Shown here: in pieces, positions 1 through 56,549 of the stretch
Layout: the number at the start of each line of letters is the position of its first letter
Numbering within the stretch: position 1 is the stretch's first letter
DNA from: an archaeon
Lineage (GTDB): Archaea > Nanobdellota > Nanobdellia > SCGC-AAA011-G17 > GW2011-AR20
Direction: 5' to 3'
Length of the DNA stretch: 56,778 nucleotides
Assembly (NCBI GenBank): GCA_043808705.1
Contig: JAZDEO010000005.1
Span: forward strand, 1 to 56,778
Program-made: the position numbers and the translations under genes
The notes under the pieces: model-generated
The model's database searches: none
The model's input: the letters and a program-made list of their open reading frames with translations, nothing else
Told to the model about the DNA's origin: nothing

Positions 1-25
1 TTTTCATACATTATATAAGACTTTT

Positions 26-84
26 TCATTTATAAAGATGGGGGGGCGGAGTTGTCCAGCTGTCCCATATACTAGAAAATATAT
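26..84. repeat. Conserved 59-bp non-coding element, copy 1 (TTTATAAA + GC-rich hairpin)
   Basis: tcatttataaagatgggggggcggagttgtccagctgtcccatatactagaaaatatat aligns without gaps to 9344-9402 at 50/59 nt. It lies upstream of a minus-strand ATG at 7-5 whose ORF runs off the window. Confidence 0.9.
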
Positions 85-141
85 GTTAAAATATAAGATA
101 CAAAATGGTTTTTGTGTAAAAAGGAGTTTATGTGCAAAGCA

Positions 142-1725
142 TTAATAACCAAAATACAAATCATTATCTTGTATATATCTCTTGTTATTCTTTAAAGCAA
201 GTTCAGCTTTCATAAGCTCTGTACCTAGATACATTAAATGCCTCTTATTTTCAGAACTTCCCATAAAAGCAATTCTATCTACTAACTCTAAAGCAGTATT
301 TCCATAAAATATCTCTAAAGTAATTCCTTTATTATCTACATGTTCTACCTTTATTTTATTATTTTCTATACTTATTATGTAATTACCTCTCAAATCATAT
401 ATCTTGTTTTCATGTGTTCTATATTTTTCTAGCATCTGTTCAGCTATTCTAAAGACATGATGATATACCTGAGCACTTCCAGAAATCATAGTCATAAAAC
501 CCAATTTCATCCCTAAAGCATCAGCTATCTCTTTCTGTAAGGCTCTAAAACCATAAGCATTCTGAGGCCATCCATTGTACATATCATGGCTTCTAAAGAA
601 CACTGTTAAATTTATCTTATTATTTTGCATTAACACTTGAATAAAAACAGCACACGGGCTGCTCTTATGCTTTCTTACAAGTTCATCTTCAACATGCCAA
701 GTTATTCCAACACAATTCTTAGAATTAATATTGATTTTTAGGCATTCAATAATATCCTTAACTTGATTTATTTTATAAACATTATCGTGTTTTAATGCAT
801 TTTTAACTAATAATTCTCTTTTTTCTCCAAGATTTTTTTTAAATTCAAAATCAACATTGCTTTGGTCTATATTCAATAAATTGTCAATCTTATAAGAAGG
901 AACTTCATACTCTCTTAATTTATTTCCATAAGTGTATGCCTTTCCTTTTGGTAATTCAGAACTTAATATTTCTCCCTGATAAAATTTAATTTGTTCTTTG
1001 GTAAAATTTAAAGGATTAATACTCAAATCAGGTTCATCAGGATTTTCATCATAAACAACAGCAACCAAATTATTTATTTCTCTTACTACTCTATCTGTGT
1101 TAGCATCCATCAGGTTTTCAACACCACATCTCATAATATTATAGATTATTTCAATCCATGTTTCCATCACTGTCCTTCCTCTAATAATCAAAGGACCTTG
1201 CTCAAATGGAAATGTCTTTGTTTCAGGCTCCTCAAAATCAAAATAAACAGGATTAGAATATGCCTCTTTCTTTTCTAATTTTTTCATTAAATCATTACCT
1301 TTTTTGATTTGTTCTTCTAAGGAAATATATTTTTCAGTAAGATCAAATATTTGAATAGAATTTCTCATAAGATTTATCTGTTCAATAGGAATATTTTTAT
1401 CAATATAAGTATCATCAAACCCAATAATCTCTCGTTTTTCATTTAAACCATTTTTGAAGAAACTCTTTAAAGTCTCAAGACTTTTACCATCCTGTTTATT
1501 CCCTATTAAAATTATATATCTTATGCATGGATTCGCTAAGCAATTCCTTATTAATGGTTCAATACCCTTTTGATGAGAATATAAATTAGCAGCTACAGCT
1601 AAATTATCTTTTTCAAGATAAGGTAAAACATTGGTTCTTTCTGTCCACAAAAAACATACAGCTACATTTTTATTATCGCAAAAATATGAAATCCTATCCT
1701 TAACAACAACAGGCCACTCCTTCAT
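142..1725 (-). CDS. thyA: Thymidylate synthase-family fusion: N-terminal MtrA-like domain, ThyA domain, C-terminal DUF4346-like domain
   Basis: ThyA motifs YTYG, SSPC (catalytic Cys), FRSHDMYNGWPQN, SAQVY. N-terminal GIEPLIRNCLANPCIRYIILIG resembles MtrA. C-terminal HLMYLGTELMKAELAL...YIQD resembles DUF4346. ATGA-coupled to dcd. Confidence 0.8.
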   Translation of the reverse strand: MKEWPVVVKDRISYFCDNKNVAVCFLWTERTNVLPYLEKDNLAVAANLYSHQKGIEPLIRNCLANPCIRYIILIGNKQDGKSLETLKSFFKNGLNEKREIIGFDDTYIDKNIPIEQINLMRNSIQIFDLTEKYISLEEQIKKGNDLMKKLEKKEAYSNPVYFDFEEPETKTFPFEQGPLIIRGRTVMETWIEIIYNIMRCGVENLMDANTDRVVREINNLVAVVYDENPDEPDLSINPLNFTKEQIKFYQGEILSSELPKGKAYTYGNKLREYEVPSYKIDNLLNIDQSNVDFEFKKNLGEKRELLVKNALKHDNVYKINQVKDIIECLKININSKNCVGITWHVEDELVRKHKSSPCAVFIQVLMQNNKINLTVFFRSHDMYNGWPQNAYGFRALQKEIADALGMKLGFMTMISGSAQVYHHVFRIAEQMLEKYRTHENKIYDLRGNYIISIENNKIKVEHVDNKGITLEIFYGNTALELVDRIAFMGSSENKRHLMYLGTELMKAELALKNNKRYIQDNDLYFGY

Positions 1726-5627: not shown

Positions 5628-6170
5628 TTATTTATTGTAATTCTTTTTTAATAATCCATACATCACTTCATCATGTATCTCTCCGTTAGATTTACTTCTT
5701 CTACACTCTTTCCTTAAACCTTCTTTAACAAATCCAAATTTCTCAAGTAATTTTCCAGAGCCAGGATTTTTAGAAAATACTCCCGCTTCCAATCTTCTCA
5801 ACTTTAATTTATTAAAAGCAAAATCAATTAAGGTCTTTAATGCTTCAGAAACATATCCGTTTCTCCAATACTTTTCTCCTAACCAATATCCTACTTCAGC
5901 TGTTCTCTGAAATTTATCAAAATGACTTAAACCTATGCCACCTACTAATTTTTTCTCTGATTTTAATTCTATACAAAAATTATATTCCCTACCTTTTTCT
6001 TTACAGTGATTAATCCACCATTTAGCATCTTTTATAGTATATGGATAAGGTACAACTAAAAGATACTTAGAAACATTTAGGTTATTGATATTTTCAATTA
6101 AACTTTCAATGTCTTTATCACTTATACTCCTTAAAATCAATCTTTCTGTTACAATTCTCATTTTACTCAT
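5628..6170 (-). CDS. GNAT N-acetyltransferase (RimJ/RimL family)
   Basis: TERLILR, AEVGYWLGEKYWRNGYVSEA, NPGSGKLLEKFGF. Confidence 0.9.
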   Translation of the reverse strand: MSKMRIVTERLILRSISDKDIESLIENINNLNVSKYLLVVPYPYTIKDAKWWINHCKEKGREYNFCIELKSEKKLVGGIGLSHFDKFQRTAEVGYWLGEKYWRNGYVSEALKTLIDFAFNKLKLRRLEAGVFSKNPGSGKLLEKFGFVKEGLRKECRRSKSNGEIHDEVMYGLLKKNYNK

Positions 6171-7461
6171 GAGGCTTTGTTATATTAACATCTTTAATTA
6201 AGACTTCAGGAGTAACACAAGGAATTTGAGCCTCCCAACTTCTTAGTTGTTCACTAATCTTACTGCATGATTGAATATTATTTAAGATATTTAACATATT
6301 ATCACTTATTCTTATGTTTTTTAAACTTTTAACTATCTCACCATTCTCCATTAAGAATATAGCATCTCTCGGTATTGTTGAAAAGTCTCCTGTATTATAA
6401 TTCTGGAATCTTGTATACCACGTATTTGTTACATAAATTATTTTTTTTTGTTTGAATATATCTTCCTTTTTAGCATCAAACAAAAGATTAGATGGATCAG
6501 GTCCTATTAATCCAGCATTTGCAGTTGTTTTTGTTTTATACCTTATTGCAGAAGATGTATTATGCAAATATGTTTTTAATACACCATTCTCGATTATATT
6601 ATTTCTCTGGCAAGGGACACCTTCAGCATCGTACTTACTTGAATTATATCCATTCTCTAAAGTACCATCATCAATCAAATTAAAATTTCCTAATTTTTGT
6701 CCTATTTTATCTTTAAAGAAACTTAGTCCTGCTTCTACATTAAATATAGAACAAGCCTCCATAACATAATTAAGCAAAGAAGCCATAGGCATATATCCTA
6801 AAATAACATCATATTTTCCAGCATCAAGCTCTGTAGGGTTTTTAGCTAATTTTGCTATCTCTCCAGCTTTTCTTCCAGATTGTTCAACCTTTAACTTGTT
6901 TAATGTTCTCGAACAAGAAGTCATATGTCCAGATTCGTCTTTTTCATTTAATGCTCTTATTGAAAAATATAAACCAGTACTTTTATCTTCTACATTTATA
7001 TTATTTGAAGTTACTAAATGACTACTATTTATGCTAGATTCAAAAATACCAGCAACCCTTTTACTATTCTCTAGAGCTGCATTAATGCCTTTATTCAATA
7101 AATCAACTTCATCAAAATCTAAAACATTTTTATCATATCCATTCTCTGTTTCTTTATACTTAAAAGGCCCTTTTGCAATTCCCCTATAATCTTTATTTGG
7201 CTCTGTCTGCTTTAAAAATTTAAAAATATTTTTTATTAATTCATCAGCTGATTTTTTATTTAAATCCTTAAGTGAAGTAGCAATTATCTTATTCTTTTGT
7301 ACAACAAAAACAGATAAATTACTTAATATCTCTGTTCCTGTCTTTACTATCTTATTATTTGCAAACTTTAACTGAGTGCCTTCAGATTTATTAAACTCTA
7401 GCACAACATCATCTGCACCATTTTTTAATAATTCATCTCTAATGTAATAGATTATTTCCAT
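6163..7461 (-). CDS. pmbA: TldE/PmbA family protein
   Basis: GKYDVIL, YDAEGVP, ENGVLKTYLHN, GDFS; no HExxxH; in the tldD neighbourhood. Confidence 0.85.
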   Translation of the reverse strand: MEIIYYIRDELLKNGADDVVLEFNKSEGTQLKFANNKIVKTGTEILSNLSVFVVQKNKIIATSLKDLNKKSADELIKNIFKFLKQTEPNKDYRGIAKGPFKYKETENGYDKNVLDFDEVDLLNKGINAALENSKRVAGIFESSINSSHLVTSNNINVEDKSTGLYFSIRALNEKDESGHMTSCSRTLNKLKVEQSGRKAGEIAKLAKNPTELDAGKYDVILGYMPMASLLNYVMEACSIFNVEAGLSFFKDKIGQKLGNFNLIDDGTLENGYNSSKYDAEGVPCQRNNIIENGVLKTYLHNTSSAIRYKTKTTANAGLIGPDPSNLLFDAKKEDIFKQKKIIYVTNTWYTRFQNYNTGDFSTIPRDAIFLMENGEIVKSLKNIRISDNMLNILNNIQSCSKISEQLRSWEAQIPCVTPEVLIKDVNITKPHE

Positions 7462-8323: not shown

Positions 8324-9316
8324 TTATATATTTAGATAAAAATTCATCTTTTCAATCTTTTGAGGATCAGAAAAGCCAATTTTGTTATTAAAATTCCTAA
8401 TATTTTCCTTTCCACTAATTTCAACAACCCACTCACTAGAGACTCTTGTCTGATACTTACAAATACTTCTACATCTTAAACTAGATCTTATCCCGAATTT
8501 ATTCAATATATTTTGTTCAGAAACAAGCAATTTTGGAGGATTCTTTAAAACAATGTTCTTAATATTTTCTGGAAGGTTATTAAAATAAATCTTTTCACTA
8601 AATTCCATACTTCTAGAAAAATTTTCTGGAAAGTTAATCAGAATAACACTTCTTCCTAAAACTATTTTTCTGCTTATCTTAGTAGCAGCATGTCCTTCAT
8701 CATCAAAAACTTGTATTAAATATTGTTTCATCCATTCTCTTTTAGAAAATATAGTTTTAGGCACATCAGGATTTATTCTAGATTTACAACCATAAGGAAC
8801 CCCTAATTTTAATAATATTCTTCCTAAGATTGGATGAAATCTAACATGCTCATTCCTAAATTCATAAGGAATATTTATAATAAAAGATTTAGCAGAGTTT
8901 ATTATTTTATCCCCCAAAAATCCAGTATTTGCATAATGAGGATGCTGATCTTCATTATGGCCATCAGACATAAAAGCCGCAATTAAAATTGGTGTATTAA
9001 TACTATTTAGATTTATAGGAAATTTTAAATCAAGATAGTCCTTAACTCCTCCAAAACCTTTTATATTTTGGTTATATAAATTATAATCTAGTTTTAAATT
9101 ATTTAAAATTTTTTTTAAAGTTTTCAGCCTAATTAATTTATTCTGATTAATATAAAACAAAGTTTTAGAATCTATACCAACCATCTTGGAAATATTCTTA
9201 TTAGATTTATATCTTTGTTTAAGCATCAAAAATAAATCTTTAGAAGCTTTTTGTTCTAATAGAACCAAAATGTTATCAGGATTCTCATACCAATTGAATA
9301 ATAAATTTTTATTCAT
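8324..9316 (-). CDS. Free-standing LAGLIDADG endonuclease-like protein with N-terminal HTH
   Basis: Two LAGLIDADG-like helices (LIAAFMSDGH, YLIQVFDDEGH), FNNKIGFSDPQK tail, N-terminal HTH (NKNISKMVGIDSKTL); no intein splice motifs. Confidence 0.8.
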   Translation of the reverse strand: MNKNLLFNWYENPDNILVLLEQKASKDLFLMLKQRYKSNKNISKMVGIDSKTLFYINQNKLIRLKTLKKILNNLKLDYNLYNQNIKGFGGVKDYLDLKFPINLNSINTPILIAAFMSDGHNEDQHPHYANTGFLGDKIINSAKSFIINIPYEFRNEHVRFHPILGRILLKLGVPYGCKSRINPDVPKTIFSKREWMKQYLIQVFDDEGHAATKISRKIVLGRSVILINFPENFSRSMEFSEKIYFNNLPENIKNIVLKNPPKLLVSEQNILNKFGIRSSLRCRSICKYQTRVSSEWVVEISGKENIRNFNNKIGFSDPQKIEKMNFYLNI

Positions 9317-9343
9317 TTAACATCGATAAAAATAAAGAAATAC

Positions 9344-9402
9344 TCATTTATAAAGATGGGAGGGCGGAGTTGTCCGTTGGACCCATATACCCTAAAATAT
9401 AT
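9344..9402. repeat. Conserved 59-bp non-coding element, copy 2
   Basis: tcatttataaagatgggagggcggagttgtccgttggacccatataccctaaaatatat; lies between the tldD stop (9418) and the LAGLIDADG start (9316). Confidence 0.9.
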
Positions 9403-9417
9403 ATTAAAGAAATCTAA

Positions 9418-10815
9418 TTAATTTATCTGAATACTCTTTAATCTGATAACAGGACCGCCCATCCATACAGCGACGGGTTGCATTTTTTCTCCCTTACCAC
9501 ATGAACCAGCAAAATGCTCTACTTTATTTCCAATCATATCAATTGATTTCCAAAAAGCGGGTGTTGTTATCTCTAGAGCCGGAGCAATTAATGGCTTTGT
9601 TATTTGACCATTTTCAACCAAATAAGCCTCACACCCAACATATTTTTGTTGATATCTTTTATCATCAATATTCCATTCTGTAAAATTTTTTAGGAAAACA
9701 CCTTTTTTAGTTTCTTTAATTATCTCTTCCTCAGAAGAATCTCCAGCAAGCATAAATGTATTACTCATTCTTACTAGATTTTCTACATCATAACCACTAG
9801 CTCTAGCACACCCATTACTTTCTAAGTTCATTTGTTTTGCTGTCTCTCGATTATGCATAAATTCAGTTATCATTCCATCTTTAATCATAAACTTTCTTCT
9901 TGCTTTAATTCCTTCATCATCATACAAAAAGAAGCCATAACTATTTTCTAATGTAGGATCATCAACAACAGTAACATTTTTAGCTCCTATCTGTGTTCCA
10001 ATCATCTTTTCAGTAATAAAAGATTCACCTGCTTGAGCAGCTTCTCTTCCAAATATTCTATCAGCTTCATATGGATGCCCAGCAGATTCATGCACAGCTA
10101 TTCCAGTAACTTCTTGACCACAAATAACATCATACTTTCCAGGCTTAACCTTAATTCCACTTTTAATATTTTCTTTTAAAGCCAAATATTCTCTCTTAAG
10201 TTTTTCATTTAAGTTCCAATTCTTCAAGCATTCATATCCTGATGAAGAACCATATGGGATGTATCTTTGTCTTGTTTTATTGTCATGCATTATAGTTAAA
10301 TAAGCATAGAAATGAATTCTAGGTATCTTAGATGTTATTCTAGAACCATCTGTATTTATATAATATTTTTCAGTTATATTATCAGATAAATAAAAAAATC
10401 TTGTATGAACATCTTTTATATCTTTATCAAGCTCCATTAAAAATCCAATCTTTTTATCTGCTGTCAAATCCTGTGTTTTTTCTTTTTCCTTAACCTCATA
10501 ATCTTTTTTAAAAGAAGGATCTTTTGATAAATACACCTTGTCTCCTATCTTTACACCATTCTTAGTTATTCGAACAGATTTTTCAATAATTCTCTTAATT
10601 GTTTCTTTATCAAGTTCATTTATTGAAACAAATCCTAGATTATTATTAATCAGATATCTTATGCCTAATCCAATACTCTTGTCAAAACCAGCAACATCTA
10701 AATTTCCATTTTTAATAAGAAATCCATTTCCATAAGTTGTTTCTAATTTTACTTCAGCATAATCTACTTTAAATTCCTCTAATTTCTTTAATGCAAAATC
10801 AGCTATATCTTTCAT
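9418..10815 (-). CDS. tldD: TldD family metalloprotease
   Basis: HESAGHPYEADR (HExxxH), YDDEG, RMSN, C-terminal CGKG. Confidence 0.92.
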   Translation of the reverse strand: MKDIADFALKKLEEFKVDYAEVKLETTYGNGFLIKNGNLDVAGFDKSIGLGIRYLINNNLGFVSINELDKETIKRIIEKSVRITKNGVKIGDKVYLSKDPSFKKDYEVKEKEKTQDLTADKKIGFLMELDKDIKDVHTRFFYLSDNITEKYYINTDGSRITSKIPRIHFYAYLTIMHDNKTRQRYIPYGSSSGYECLKNWNLNEKLKREYLALKENIKSGIKVKPGKYDVICGQEVTGIAVHESAGHPYEADRIFGREAAQAGESFITEKMIGTQIGAKNVTVVDDPTLENSYGFFLYDDEGIKARRKFMIKDGMITEFMHNRETAKQMNLESNGCARASGYDVENLVRMSNTFMLAGDSSEEEIIKETKKGVFLKNFTEWNIDDKRYQQKYVGCEAYLVENGQITKPLIAPALEITTPAFWKSIDMIGNKVEHFAGSCGKGEKMQPVAVWMGGPVIRLKSIQIN

Positions 10816-27256: not shown

Positions 27257-27341
27257 GGGTCTGTAACATAACTTGGATCGTGTGGTCGGCTTCAAAAGGG
27301 CTAAGGACCGATTAATCAGAGTTCAAATCTCTGCAGGCCCA
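27257..27341 (+). tRNA. tRNA-Arg(TCG) with 11-nt intron at 35/36 (27294-27304)
   Basis: Acceptor GGGTCTG/CAGGCCC+A; T arm CAGAG-TTCAAAT-CTCTG; anticodon stem GTCGG/CCGAT with an 18-nt loop; A20. Refolding gives helix GGTC/GACC, a 3-nt bulge AAG and helix GGCT/GGCT, which yields the loop CT-TCG-GA. Confidence 0.85.
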
Positions 27342-27355
27342 TTAAATAAATTATA

Positions 27356-27445
27356 GGGGTTGTATGCTAATCTGGTTAGGCTTCGTGCTTAGGGAAATGC
27401 TTTTATAAAAAGCACGCGACCCCAGTTCAAATCTGGGCAGCCCCA
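27356..27445 (+). tRNA. tRNA-Pro(AGG) with 16-nt intron at 37/38 (27395-27410)
   Basis: Acceptor GGGGTTG/CAGCCCC+A; T arm CCCAG-TTCAAAT-CTGGG; anticodon stem CGTGC/GCACG with a 23-nt loop; relaxed BHB gives TT-AGG-GA. The body resembles archaeal tRNA-Pro. Confidence 0.8.
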
Positions 27446-53999: not shown

Positions 54000-54121
54000 C
54001 TAATAAACAATATTTATATATCTTACTATAGAATGCCTTTTTAATTTGTATGCTCTAGAATATAGGTCCAAGAGACAAGTCATCGAAGAAGATTTATAAA
54101 TTATTATGTCTTATACATATT

Positions 54122-55333
54122 ATGAACTGCATACAATGTAAAGGCAAGTATCTTTGTTCTAGACCTTTTTGTCCATTTCAAGTAAACTATAAGGTAATTC
54201 AAAAAGAGAGCTTTGATGGAAGTTCTCCTCCTCAGGTCTTTATAGGTTCTAAATTATATCCTAGAGCAAATGTAGGAATTTTAAGCCCGCCAGAAAAAAC
54301 AGAGGATTCCTGGATTTATAATAGCCCAAATTATTGGACACAAAACAAATATACAATAAATGAAATAGTAAATTTAAGAAAGAACTTAATAAATTCAAGA
54401 TTTGAAACCTCTATAAAAGAATCTTCAAAATTTTTAGATATTTCTAAGGAAATAGCAATGTCCTATAAGCCTGTAGATGTAGAAATAGAACTTCAAAAAA
54501 AGCCATTTGTAAATCAAAAATTTGACACAATTAATATGCCTGTAAGCATAGCATCTCCTTTAAAAAAAGTAAAGATAACATCAAATCCAAAAATACATCA
54601 AAAAGTAGACAAAGCAGTTAATGATACTGATTTAAAAGCAAATGAAGCTATATTATATTTAAAAGATTCATTTGATGAACATTTTTTAACACAACTTATT
54701 TCAATAGGTGTTCTAGGTTTAAAACATAATAGAAAACTAGTTCCAACAAGATGGAGCATTGTTTGTGTTGATAGTACATTAGGAAATGATTTTATAAACA
54801 AAATTAAAGAATATAAAGAATCAAATTATTTAATTTATTTTGGCGGATGTTATGGTAATTACTTTTTAGTTATGTTCTTTCCCGAAATATGGTCATATGA
54901 ACTATTTGAAATGTATATGCCAGAAGCTATTTGGAATCAAAATAATAAGATATCTTACACAACAGATTATGAAAATTATTATGGAAGAAAGACATACGCT
55001 AAAAACTGTGCTGGTGGTTATTATAGTAATCGCCTAGCAGTTTTAGAAAAACTAGAAAACCTAAAGAGACAAGCTAGTGTACTAGTAATCCGTTTTACAA
55101 CTAAAGAGTACACTACTAATTTGGGTGTTTGGGTTGTAAGAGAAGCTACAAGAGAAGCACTTAGAACAAAACCAATAGAATTTAATTCAAAGGAAAATAT
55201 GCTAAAATATGCAGAATTTCTGATTCATAAAAAATTTAATTATAATCTCTTTAACACAACAAAAGAGAGCATTATACTAAAAAATATAAATCAACAATGT
55301 AAACTATCAAAATTTTTTACCCAACATAATTAA
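54122..55333 (+). CDS. nreA: Archaeal DNA repair protein NreA/NreB (PCNA-interacting)
   Basis: N-terminal CxxC-x5-C-x3-C, GSSPP.VFIG, KLVPTRWSI, GGYY, GVWVVRE, C-terminal PIP box QCKLSKFF. Confidence 0.88.
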   Translation: MNCIQCKGKYLCSRPFCPFQVNYKVIQKESFDGSSPPQVFIGSKLYPRANVGILSPPEKTEDSWIYNSPNYWTQNKYTINEIVNLRKNLINSRFETSIKESSKFLDISKEIAMSYKPVDVEIELQKKPFVNQKFDTINMPVSIASPLKKVKITSNPKIHQKVDKAVNDTDLKANEAILYLKDSFDEHFLTQLISIGVLGLKHNRKLVPTRWSIVCVDSTLGNDFINKIKEYKESNYLIYFGGCYGNYFLVMFFPEIWSYELFEMYMPEAIWNQNNKISYTTDYENYYGRKTYAKNCAGGYYSNRLAVLEKLENLKRQASVLVIRFTTKEYTTNLGVWVVREATREALRTKPIEFNSKENMLKYAEFLIHKKFNYNLFNTTKESIILKNINQQCKLSKFFTQHN

Positions 55334-55406: not shown

Positions 55407-56549
55407 ATGAATAAAAAATTTGATAATAATTTAGTAGGATTAAAAGATTTAAGTACTCCCTCTTTTTATATACTCTTAACTAAAGACTATAGAGAATTTT
55501 TAATTAAGAAAGCCCTAAACAATAAAAAAGATTTTAAAAGCATCGCTCAGGAAATTGGTTGTTGTGTGGAAACTTTAAAGAACTTTAAAAATTATAAAGA
55601 AAAACACATTAACTCCAAATTTCTTAAAAACTTATTAAGTTTGTTAGATATACCGATTAATGATGCTGAAAAACATGTTTTATCTATAAAAAGAGGATGT
55701 TCTAACAGAGATGTAAAATTAAGATTACCAATAAAAGCAAAGCCAGAATTAGCTTTACTTATGGCAAAGGCATTTGGAGATGGAAGCGTTTTATCTGATT
55801 GGAGATTTCATTATACAAATACTCAATTAAATTTGATAAAAGAAGTAATTAATGCTGTAACCAAATCAATAGGTAAGACTAGATACACCCTACATAAGAG
55901 ATCAGACAGAAAAATTTATGAAATAAAATTTTCTCCAGTTGTAGGATATATCTTAAATTTAATTGGTGCTCCCAAAAGTTACAAAATTAATCAAGAATTT
56001 AGAATTCCTAATTGGATAATGGATGGAGATAAAAATACAAAATCATATTTTTTAAGAGGAATATTTGACGATGAATCATGTGTTAATAAAAGTGGAAGGA
56101 GTAAAAGAATTTTATTAGCAATGGGAAAAATTAACGATTATGAAGATTCTCTAAGGAATTTTTTAGAACAAATTCAAAAATTATTATTAGAATTTGATAT
56201 AAGTACAGGAAGCATCCATATCCAACAAAGGTATGGGAATAAAGTAATATTGAGATTTGGAATTTATAAAAAAACTAATTTTGAAAATTTTAAAATGTTT
56301 ATAGATTTTACTCACACAAAAAAGAAAAGAATTATTAAAGATATAATTAATAGCTATATAGATACACATAAAACAAAAAAAATGGTTTTGGAAACTTTGA
56401 AGGATGTAAAATATCCTTTAACTACAAATGAAATTGCTAAATTGAATAAACTTAGAAGAAGGAATGCATATGAACATCTTAATAATTTATTTAAAGAAGA
56501 TATCATTAAAAAGATAGAAGTAAGACCAACAATGTGGTTTAAGAATTAA
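55407..56549 (+). CDS. Free-standing LAGLIDADG endonuclease-like protein with N-terminal HTH and C-terminal wHTH
   Basis: LMAKAFGDGS, YTN, IPNWI, FLRGIFDDESC; HTH FKSIAQEIGCCVETL; wHTH LTTNEIAKL...AYEHLNNL. Confidence 0.82.
   Translation: MNKKFDNNLVGLKDLSTPSFYILLTKDYREFLIKKALNNKKDFKSIAQEIGCCVETLKNFKNYKEKHINSKFLKNLLSLLDIPINDAEKHVLSIKRGCSNRDVKLRLPIKAKPELALLMAKAFGDGSVLSDWRFHYTNTQLNLIKEVINAVTKSIGKTRYTLHKRSDRKIYEIKFSPVVGYILNLIGAPKSYKINQEFRIPNWIMDGDKNTKSYFLRGIFDDESCVNKSGRSKRILLAMGKINDYEDSLRNFLEQIQKLLLEFDISTGSIHIQQRYGNKVILRFGIYKKTNFENFKMFIDFTHTKKKRIIKDIINSYIDTHKTKKMVLETLKDVKYPLTTNEIAKLNKLRRRNAYEHLNNLFKEDIIKKIEVRPTMWFKN

Follow-up and report, generated by a model that had tools for sequence, protein, structure and literature searches.

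The GC-rich element that occurs twice in the first 10 kb of the window, the 56,778-nucleotide stretch of archaeal DNA analysed here, is the central 59-bp part of a module of ~95 bp that is present in 18 unique copies in the genome (E ≤ 1e-7). We suggest, with a probability of roughly 0.68, that the module is a regulated archaeal promoter/operator that acts as double-stranded DNA and is reused mostly by selfish genes. Within this explanation, the GC 'hairpin' of the element is the lineage's version of the promoter spacer rather than a functional stem. The window is contig C5 of an assembly of 62 contigs and 971 kb (0.97 Mb) with a GC content of 28.6%, and the genome shows archaeal hallmarks, namely a TFIIB-type factor, Nre and leaderless TATA promoters.

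Copies 1 and 2 (positions 26–84 and 9344–9402) are identical at 50 of 59 positions without gaps, as the first-pass annotation had recorded. The 14-mer GGGCGGAGTTGTCC is exact in both copies and has two matches in the window when up to three mismatches are allowed (shuffle mean 0.34). The palindromic TTTATAAA is located at 29–36 in copy 1 and at 9347–9354 in copy 2, and is followed in both by a GC-rich stretch. The distances given earlier from the element to a minus-strand ATG also hold, being 18 nt for copy 1 (ATG at 7-5) and 27 nt for copy 2 (ATG at 9316-9314). The two copies comprise the following parts:

29–36, minus strand: predicted TATA box of copy 1, TTTATAAA, 21 nt from the ATG at 7-5 and invariant in copy alignment A2.
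37–51, minus strand: GC-rich 15-nt spacer of copy 1 at the BRE position, corresponding to the 5′ arm of the hairpin proposed earlier.
52–72, minus strand: conserved core of copy 1, a putative operator, which reads GGGACAGCTGGACAA in gene orientation; TTGTC is invariant in 28 copies.
76–91, minus strand: upstream AT-rich box of copy 1 (AAAATATAT.TT on the plus strand), kept in the own copies and in relatives.
9347–9354, minus strand: predicted TATA box of the LAGLIDADG gene in copy 2, 30 nt before the ATG at 9316 and aligned with the box of copy 1.
9355–9369, minus strand: GC-rich spacer of copy 2.
9370–9390, minus strand: core of copy 2, an inverted-repeat variant, GTCC-GTT-GGAC.
9394–9409, minus strand: upstream AT-rich box of copy 2.

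On the plus strand, the core of copy 1 reads TTGTCC-N4-GTCCC and is followed by ATATAC. A position just after a housekeeping stop codon, which had been taken as a property of the element, is true of copies 1 and 2, where the upstream neighbours end at minus-strand stops 142–144 (a MtrA/ThyA/pterin-binding fusion) and 9418–9420, but it does not hold generally: the end of a co-directional ORF lies at most 50 nt before the module in 6 of the 18 own copies, and the start of a divergent ORF lies within ~135 nt in 8 of them.

Iteration of the profile search saturates at the 18 copies, the next match in the own genome having an E-value of 0.18. Four more occurrences of the exact GC core are present in the genome, and the one at the end of contig C28 is the locus of copy 1 itself, because C28 overlaps the start of the window by 134 nt. 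The wider family keeps TTTATAAA, a TTGTCC..GTCCC/GGAC core and the AT-rich box, with the GC arm exchanged for an AT-type stretch. Indeed, the GC arm is present in 6 of the 18 own copies, and in the other 12 the spacer is of the AT type, with a BRE-like AAGAAGG at its end. The orientation of the module is always tied to the downstream gene, and the GC-type copies are almost identical over ~60 bp before a TnpB-like, a LAGLIDADG-HTH and a small-ORF gene. The flanks diverge at once beyond both module borders and no repeat bounds the module, which led us to reject a MITE or a transposon terminal repeat.

Wherever a gene accompanies the module, it is found on the side of TTTATAAA. Of the 66 copies with a downstream ORF of at least 60 aa (from the own genome, the sister strain and relatives), 19 have exactly 21 nt between the end of the box and the ATG, and 36 have 20–26 nt. 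The sequences between the TATA box and the ATG vary among genes while the distance stays constant. Genome-wide, the distance from a TATA-like box to the ATG of a long ORF peaks at 20–23 nt, with 160 pairs against a background of ~8 per distance. Since the box of the module adopts this same genome-wide spacing, TTTATAAA is best read as the probable TATA box of the downstream, mostly leaderless gene. Transcription would start at the ATG or a few bases before it, ~21 nt after the TATA box.

What sets the module class apart from ordinary promoters is a conserved block of 55 bp upstream; in the ordinary promoters of the own genome (n=203, many of them of housekeeping genes), conservation is limited to an A-rich BRE and the TATA box. 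Conserved half-sites are found in the module at a fixed spacing from the TATA box, as in an operator, with 14 nt between GACAA and TATA in 56 of 84 copies and 15 nt in 14 (70 of 84 together). The AAGAAGG at the end of the AT-type spacer resembles the A-rich BRE consensus of the genome, whereas the GC-type spacer and the spacers of most relatives do not; an alternative TFB that reads the GC spacer was discarded, as the genome has a single TFB gene. The promoter geometry and the reuse before unrelated genes would also be produced by a strong constitutive promoter that has no dedicated regulator, is copied by recombination to promoterless arrivals and uses the upstream block through DNA shape or direct contacts with TBP/TFB, and our analysis identifies no regulator. 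We nevertheless consider such a promoter unlikely, since ordinary promoters have no conserved block upstream of the BRE, the replacement of the A-rich BRE consensus by a GC-rich spacer argues against a stronger basal promoter, and half-site arrangements with genome-specific variants look like a protein-binding site.

We therefore return to the regulated promoter/operator, the proposed order of which, in gene orientation, is an AT-rich box, GTCC/GACA-type half-sites ending in GGACAA, a spacer of 14–15 nt at the BRE position, TTTATAAA and a short conserved GTCTTA-type stretch. We infer that a sequence-specific DNA-binding protein on the half-sites, beside a non-consensus BRE, would control the recruitment of TBP/TFB. 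By analogy with TFB-RF1 or EarA, the binder could activate transcription, but repression is equally possible. According to the accessible text of the two reports, the archaeal activator sites of TFB-RF1 of Pyrococcus furiosus (PMC5937170) and of EarA (PMC5512572) lie just upstream of a weak BRE. As far as these accounts extend, the site in the module is similar in that it is located directly upstream of a non-consensus BRE at a fixed distance from the TATA box, the likeness drawn here being one of layout and the binder of the module putative. Candidates for the binder are an 87-aa protein, Bro-N proteins and LAGLIDADG-HTH proteins, all of which are nominated through linkage alone. WhiA is a LAGLIDADG-HTH regulator, and the parallel to the LAGLIDADG-HTH candidates is drawn by analogy.

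Beyond the own genome, the module is present on ten metagenome contigs from one sample series, with 12 strong matches and one weaker match; these contigs are 77–93% identical to the own genome and are thus assigned to a sister strain or species. In exact-word searches of public collections, true copies are confined to those ten contigs, and matches to the 19-mer in bacterial MAGs, in one IMG/VR contig and in GC-rich metagenome contigs lie inside other DNA and were set aside as chance. Across 60 genomes, the type I 19-mer has one chance-like match, and a degenerate type II pattern matches the relatives at about the level of a reversed control. As exact and near-exact patterns are too strict or too loose in relatives, a sequence-only covariance model (R1) was built from 28 copies and run on 100 related genomes. 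The model matches 45 of the 100 at E ≤ 0.01, including 20 of the 26 from the same family and usually at several places per genome, these E-values being approximate owing to a shortened calibration on AT-rich DNA. At the same threshold the own genome yields just its 18 copies, which speaks for the specificity of the model.

The relatives retain the order of the parts, from the TATA box through a GC-rich spacer (60–85% GC) and TTGTC with a second GTC/GAC half-site to the AT-rich box, and the second half-site is arranged as a direct, inverted or tandem copy. With GC-rich spacers in the relatives, the GC spacer is thus the common state and the AT-type spacer belongs to the own lineage. The identity of core plus spacer is 0.71 within genomes compared with 0.53 between genomes, a difference that none of 1000 label shuffles reaches. 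This within-genome likeness fits co-evolution with a putative binding protein but, as paralogs are among the genes headed by the module, gene conversion or recent duplication could also account for it.

The first-pass annotation had interpreted the element as a plus-strand hairpin and possible small RNA. An element acting as structured RNA or single-stranded DNA, whether a small RNA, a terminator, a REP-like element or an IS200/IS605-type hairpin, would suit copy 1, which lies inside a TnpB-like unit and the plus strand of which does fold as described (-17.9 kcal/mol, z -2.57), with one of 200 shuffles as stable. The description does not carry over to copy 2 (z -0.91), which folds no better than shuffles, as do both minus strands and the copy on contig C10. 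Moreover, the 12 own copies without the GC 5′ arm keep the 3′ arm, and since the 3′ arm is conserved with or without its partner, it is therefore conserved for another reason. When the proposed stem of 12 pairs is laid over 28 aligned copies, 65.8% of cells are paired compared with 66.4% after shuffling, and covariation amounts to 0.062 against a shuffled value of 0.073, such that none is seen. RNAalifold returns 0 pairs both for 56 copies of relatives in plus orientation and for 49 in gene orientation, and Rfam has no match over copies 1 or 2, either at gathering thresholds or at E ≤ 1. A plus-strand start from the palindromic TATA box would, in addition, fall inside the stem. With no stem conservation, no covariation and no Rfam match, a hairpin or small RNA was rejected and we regard this class of explanation as highly improbable. 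Resemblances to C/D-box, H/ACA, tRNA-half and origin recognition box (ORB) elements, considered by eye, were dropped because the defining boxes seem to be absent or the G-run is wrongly oriented. A single weak Rfam row, SAR11_0636, is located at 104–186, outside the element.

The genes headed by the module were counted over the 18 own copies and over 42 downstream proteins scanned in relatives. In the own genome they are distributed as follows:

LAGLIDADG-type, two of them weak matches: 5 copies.
TnpB/Cas12f-like: 3 copies.
Bro-N: 2 copies.
XRE-HTH protein: 1 copy.
Schlafen/AlbA_2-HATPase-wHTH protein: 1 copy.
Nre: 1 copy.
Primase-like protein: 1 copy.
114-aa protein (the small protein discussed below): 1 copy.
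615-aa protein of no assigned family: 1 copy.
41-aa ORF (in the sister strain, a TnpB gene comes next): 1 copy.
No ORF: 1 copy.

Among the 42 proteins of relatives, nine are LAGLIDADG, four Bro-N, three TnpB and two DUF559/REase-like, with one each of integrase, ORF6N, KilA-N and RNase_H-like. The module precedes all three TnpB-like genes and both Bro-N genes of the own genome, and 5 of its 11 free-standing LAGLIDADG genes. The element had been proposed as a cis-acting unit that travels with LAGLIDADG/HTH genes; the association is real (5 of 18 own copies, 9 of 42 in relatives) but not specific, as 6 of the 11 LAGLIDADG genes have no module. Exclusivity is contradicted by the module also heading TnpB-like, Bro-N, Nre, primase-like and conserved small-protein genes. 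Near-identical promoter DNA is thus found before non-homologous, mostly selfish genes, so that the module behaves like a reused promoter by which these genes come under a common control. It looks like a regulatory plug common to mobile genes, rather than an RNA or a transposon end.

According to the accessible text of one report, putative mobile promoters in prokaryotes are highly similar promoters upstream of non-homologous genes, both within and between genomes (PMC3575422). As described there, they resemble the module in that similar promoter DNA precedes non-homologous genes; the module differs from them in being of the archaeal TATA/BRE type, in having an operator-like site at fixed spacing, in its order-wide distribution and in its concentration on selfish genes. 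The accessible portions of the literature on LAGLIDADG in DPANN, on mobile promoters and on leaderless/TATA promoters in DPANN contain no description of the module. Set against this partial literature, what appears new is an archaeal reused promoter with a putative operator, found order-wide and concentrated on selfish genes, promoter reuse and free-standing homing cassettes being known concepts. Gene regulation in ultra-small uncultured archaea is little known, and the module represents a concrete conserved cis-element with defined geometry. It defines a set of genes that consists mostly of selfish DNA with a few repair/replication genes, and may be used in annotation to mark accessory or selfish genes in these genomes.

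Copy 2 of the module lies in a cassette between two genes that are adjacent in most relatives:

6163–7461, minus strand: PmbA/TldE-type gene, which directly follows tldD in most relatives.
8324–9316, minus strand: free-standing LAGLIDADG gene of 330 aa headed by copy 2 (Pfam LAGLIDADG_3, 9e-5).
9418–10815, minus strand: gene for a TldD-type metallopeptidase, next to copy 2 on its upstream side (PmbA_TldD domains, 8e-50).

A TldD-type gene is present in 13 genomes of the same family, 12 of which are informative for the junction. The comparison with empty tldD-tldE loci that had been suggested proved productive: the junction is empty in 10 of the 12, with pmbA 1–125 nt after tldD. Orthologs of the LAGLIDADG protein of the window are located exactly between tldD and pmbA in genomes G026 (54% identity) and G016 (48%). 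In G026, which belongs to another genus, the tldD stop codon is immediately followed by the module, which occupies the edge of the LAGLIDADG cassette. The cassette of G016 is without the module and has in its place a small ORF with an ordinary promoter, which by eye encodes a putative ribbon-helix-helix-like protein. Short contig pieces from read run X1 (80–95% likeness) include one that spans 9273–9463, and none of them bridges an empty site. The window cassette (8324–9409) thus combines an endonuclease domain with presence and absence at one junction, as in a free-standing homing endonuclease, and the patchy occupancy of tldD|pmbA is what homing predicts. The comparison shows that the module travels with the LAGLIDADG gene as its predicted promoter, and provides natural filled and empty sites for this gene.

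Free-standing homing endonuclease genes have their own promoters, and I-TevI acts as an autorepressor at an operator. The LAGLIDADG gene is similar in that it appears to travel with its own promoter/operator as an intergenic cassette, the presence and absence of which at tldD|pmbA matches homing. Unlike such cassettes, the promoter in the module is common to TnpB-like, Bro-N, integrase and host genes.

Copy 1 is associated with a second type of mobile gene, only the first bases of which fall within the window:

1–7, minus strand: start of a TnpB/Cas12f-like gene, the rest of which is on C28, across the 134-nt overlap.
127–140, no strand assigned: 14-bp inverted repeat, TTTATGTGCAAAGC on the plus strand, read by eye, which bounds the TnpB-like unit that contains copy 1.

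The gene starting at 7-5 had been predicted to be a related nuclease/HTH gene. It does encode a mobile-element nuclease, but one that is TnpB/Cas12f-like instead of LAGLIDADG/HTH, and the gene is interrupted on C28 by an insertion of ~790 bp. Its paralogs of 348 aa on contigs C51 and C9 match Cas12f1-like_TNB at 3e-19. The 14-mer TTTATGTGCAAAGC follows the stop codons of the TnpB-like genes on C51 and C9, and its complement is found upstream of the modules on C51 and in the window, both by eye. The ends of IS200/IS605-family elements are subterminal hairpins recognised by TnpA. Copy 1 is reminiscent of these in that it lies upstream of a TnpB-like gene and has hairpin potential; unlike them, the module does not occupy a terminal position in the unit, the majority of copies have no adjacent tnpB and the stem is not conserved. 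With 3 of 18 own copies before TnpB-like genes and the 14-bp inverted repeats of the unit outside the module, an IS200/IS605 end hairpin was rejected.

Further cassettes differ between close relatives. Contig L044 of the sister strain is collinear with contig C13 of the own genome but is longer at two places, where ~50 and 28 bp of C13 correspond to segments of ~1.9 and ~2.1 kb in L044. One of these segments carries a module together with a small ORF and a TnpB gene, and in the other a module is accompanied by a 615-aa HTH/Mrr/NERD-type gene. No duplication is seen at the borders of these insertions. Cassettes that are present or absent between close relatives, nearly identical copies before non-homologous genes and the module of G026 at the cassette edge would all be expected if the module itself moved the cassettes as the end by which a mobile unit is recognised, be it a transposon end, an integrase att site or a homing-related site. 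Against this, the modules of L044 lie ~410 and ~107 nt inside the inserted DNA, the inverted repeats of the TnpB-like unit lie outside the module, and the 3′ flanks of 15 cassettes share no second end except between the TnpB-like paralogs. In addition, the module keeps a fixed orientation and spacing with respect to the TATA box and the ATG, Nre and a near-universal single-copy gene are headed by it as well, and the orthologous LAGLIDADG cassette of G016 lacks it. A mobile end is, in our view, decidedly unlikely.

The module is also found before a host gene in the window, in a third copy with the orientation opposite to that of copies 1 and 2:

54028–54117, plus strand: copy 3 of the module (nhmmer E 2.6e-15; covariance model E 1.3e-13).
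54065–54078, plus strand: type II core of copy 3, GGTCCAAGAGACAA.
54093–54100, plus strand: predicted TATA box of copy 3, 21 nt before the ATG at 54122.
54122–55333, plus strand: gene for Nre, an archaeal DNA-repair-associated protein, headed by copy 3 (Nre_N 1e-73, Nre_C 1e-28).
55407–56549, plus strand: LAGLIDADG-HTH gene directly downstream of Nre (LAGLIDADG_3 at 6e-7).

It had been remarked that the gene at 55407 lacks the element. This is literally correct, as its upstream region contains no module of its own, but the diverged copy 3 heads Nre directly upstream of that gene. The association with host genes is uneven: by eye, the core is present at canonical spacing in 3 of the 19 Nre upstream regions read, namely those of the own genome, G007 and G006, and was not seen in the other 16; at these regions in relatives, the covariance model scores G007 alone, weakly (E 0.09). 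Nre adjoins a Bro-N gene headed by the module, or a remnant of such a gene, in four other genera. Among the other promoters of the own genome, resemblance to the module is limited to that of the RFC small subunit, which is weak (E 0.7 in a promoter-only database). A DNA-replication regulon was rejected, since beyond the 18 strong copies there is only this weak RFC likeness and most Nre promoters of relatives are without the core.

The most widely conserved home of the module is the gene for a small protein of ~87 aa, which has no Pfam match and accounts for 7 of the 42 downstream proteins in relatives. The gene was detected in 91 of the 101 genomes, almost always once, and a manual cross-tabulation puts a module match immediately before it in 20 genomes, which represent many families. 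The leader at this gene is longer than elsewhere, with 38–121 nt. More speculatively, and with considerable doubt on our part, the module could be the native promoter/operator of the 87-aa gene that has been captured repeatedly by unrelated selfish genes, giving an order-wide mobilome regulon in which the selfish genes, along with Nre, primase and perhaps RFC, would be switched by a single host factor, possibly the 87-aa protein. If true, homing and transposition would be tied to the state of host DNA metabolism. If one factor reads the module, this would reveal the way in which mobile genes connect to a circuit of the host, and that circuit could be examined with recombinant proteins and synthetic DNA, without the need for a culture.

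Searches of Pfam, PDB profiles and the Atlas with the 87-aa protein were uninformative. Foldseek returns nothing at E ≤ 0.001 for its model, and the best VIA Z of 5.3 (HP0035) is within noise. Alignment A6 comprises nine sequences of the small protein, the seven from relatives together with the own-genome and sister-strain members; the own-genome member is encoded at C1:14846–15187. The AF2 model (pLDDT 75) predicts four strands and one helix.

The first 134 bases of the window, which span module copy 1 (the ~95-bp promoter/operator-like element), are identical to the end of contig C28 of the same genome, and the two contigs, C28 and C5, are therefore probably adjacent. The TnpB-like gene that starts at window positions 7-5, and lies to the left of the window on C28, is split by an insertion of ~790 bp (C28, roughly 65,600-66,400), which is absent from its TnpB-like paralogs on contigs C51 and C9. 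By eye, a candidate IS200-type TnpA-like ORF can be discerned inside this insertion, on the strand opposite to the TnpB-like gene. The TnpB-like units are bordered by a 14-bp inverted repeat (window 127-140, as well as the C51 and C9 units), with an additional 9-bp direct repeat (ATTCTACTT) in the C51 unit and an imperfect direct repeat of ~34 bp in the C9 unit. Such a combination of flanking inverted and direct repeats is unusual for TnpB-only elements.

Of two module copies on contig C36 (C36:8535-8599 and C36:6850-6939), one has a degraded TATA box and no ORF behind it, and the other comprises only the TATA-proximal half, ahead of a Schlafen/AlbA-HTH gene; these two copies are decaying or partial modules. 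Three or four tandem TGTC(T/C)TTTT half-sites are observed instead of two in some relatives (L083, L119 and L123; G043), which suggests that arrays of the putative operator half-sites can expand.

A family of small proteins of 87-114 aa (C1:14846-15187; nine-sequence alignment A6), often encoded behind the module, is present as one copy in 91 of 101 genomes of the order. These proteins, predicted to fold into four strands and a long helix and ending in an acidic tail, match no Pfam family, and no known structure resembles them convincingly. In four genera (L173, L179, L184 and L185; G018, G012, G008 and G019, respectively), the DNA-repair-associated Nre gene is directly adjoined by an intact or remnant Bro-N gene headed by the module; in the window, Nre is followed by a LAGLIDADG-HTH gene. 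The surroundings of Nre thus resemble either an insertion-type hotspot or a case of functional linkage.

A LAGLIDADG_3 match shares a single 822-aa open frame with two TFIIB repeats (C58:19303-20565), and the sole TFB gene of the genome thus seems to hold an intein. Since many other LAGLIDADG matches lie within frames of 800-1678 aa, inteins look common in this genome.

Fusion protein and tRNA genes of the window
142-1725, minus strand: three-part protein ('thyA fusion'); domains: MtrA-like, thymidylate synthase (partial), PterinBD-DUF4346
27257-27341, plus strand: tRNA gene (Rfam, 43.6 bits)
27356-27445, plus strand: tRNA gene (Rfam, 40.5 bits)

Neither tRNA gene is reported by ARAGORN, and both, at 85-90 nt, may contain introns or unusual features.
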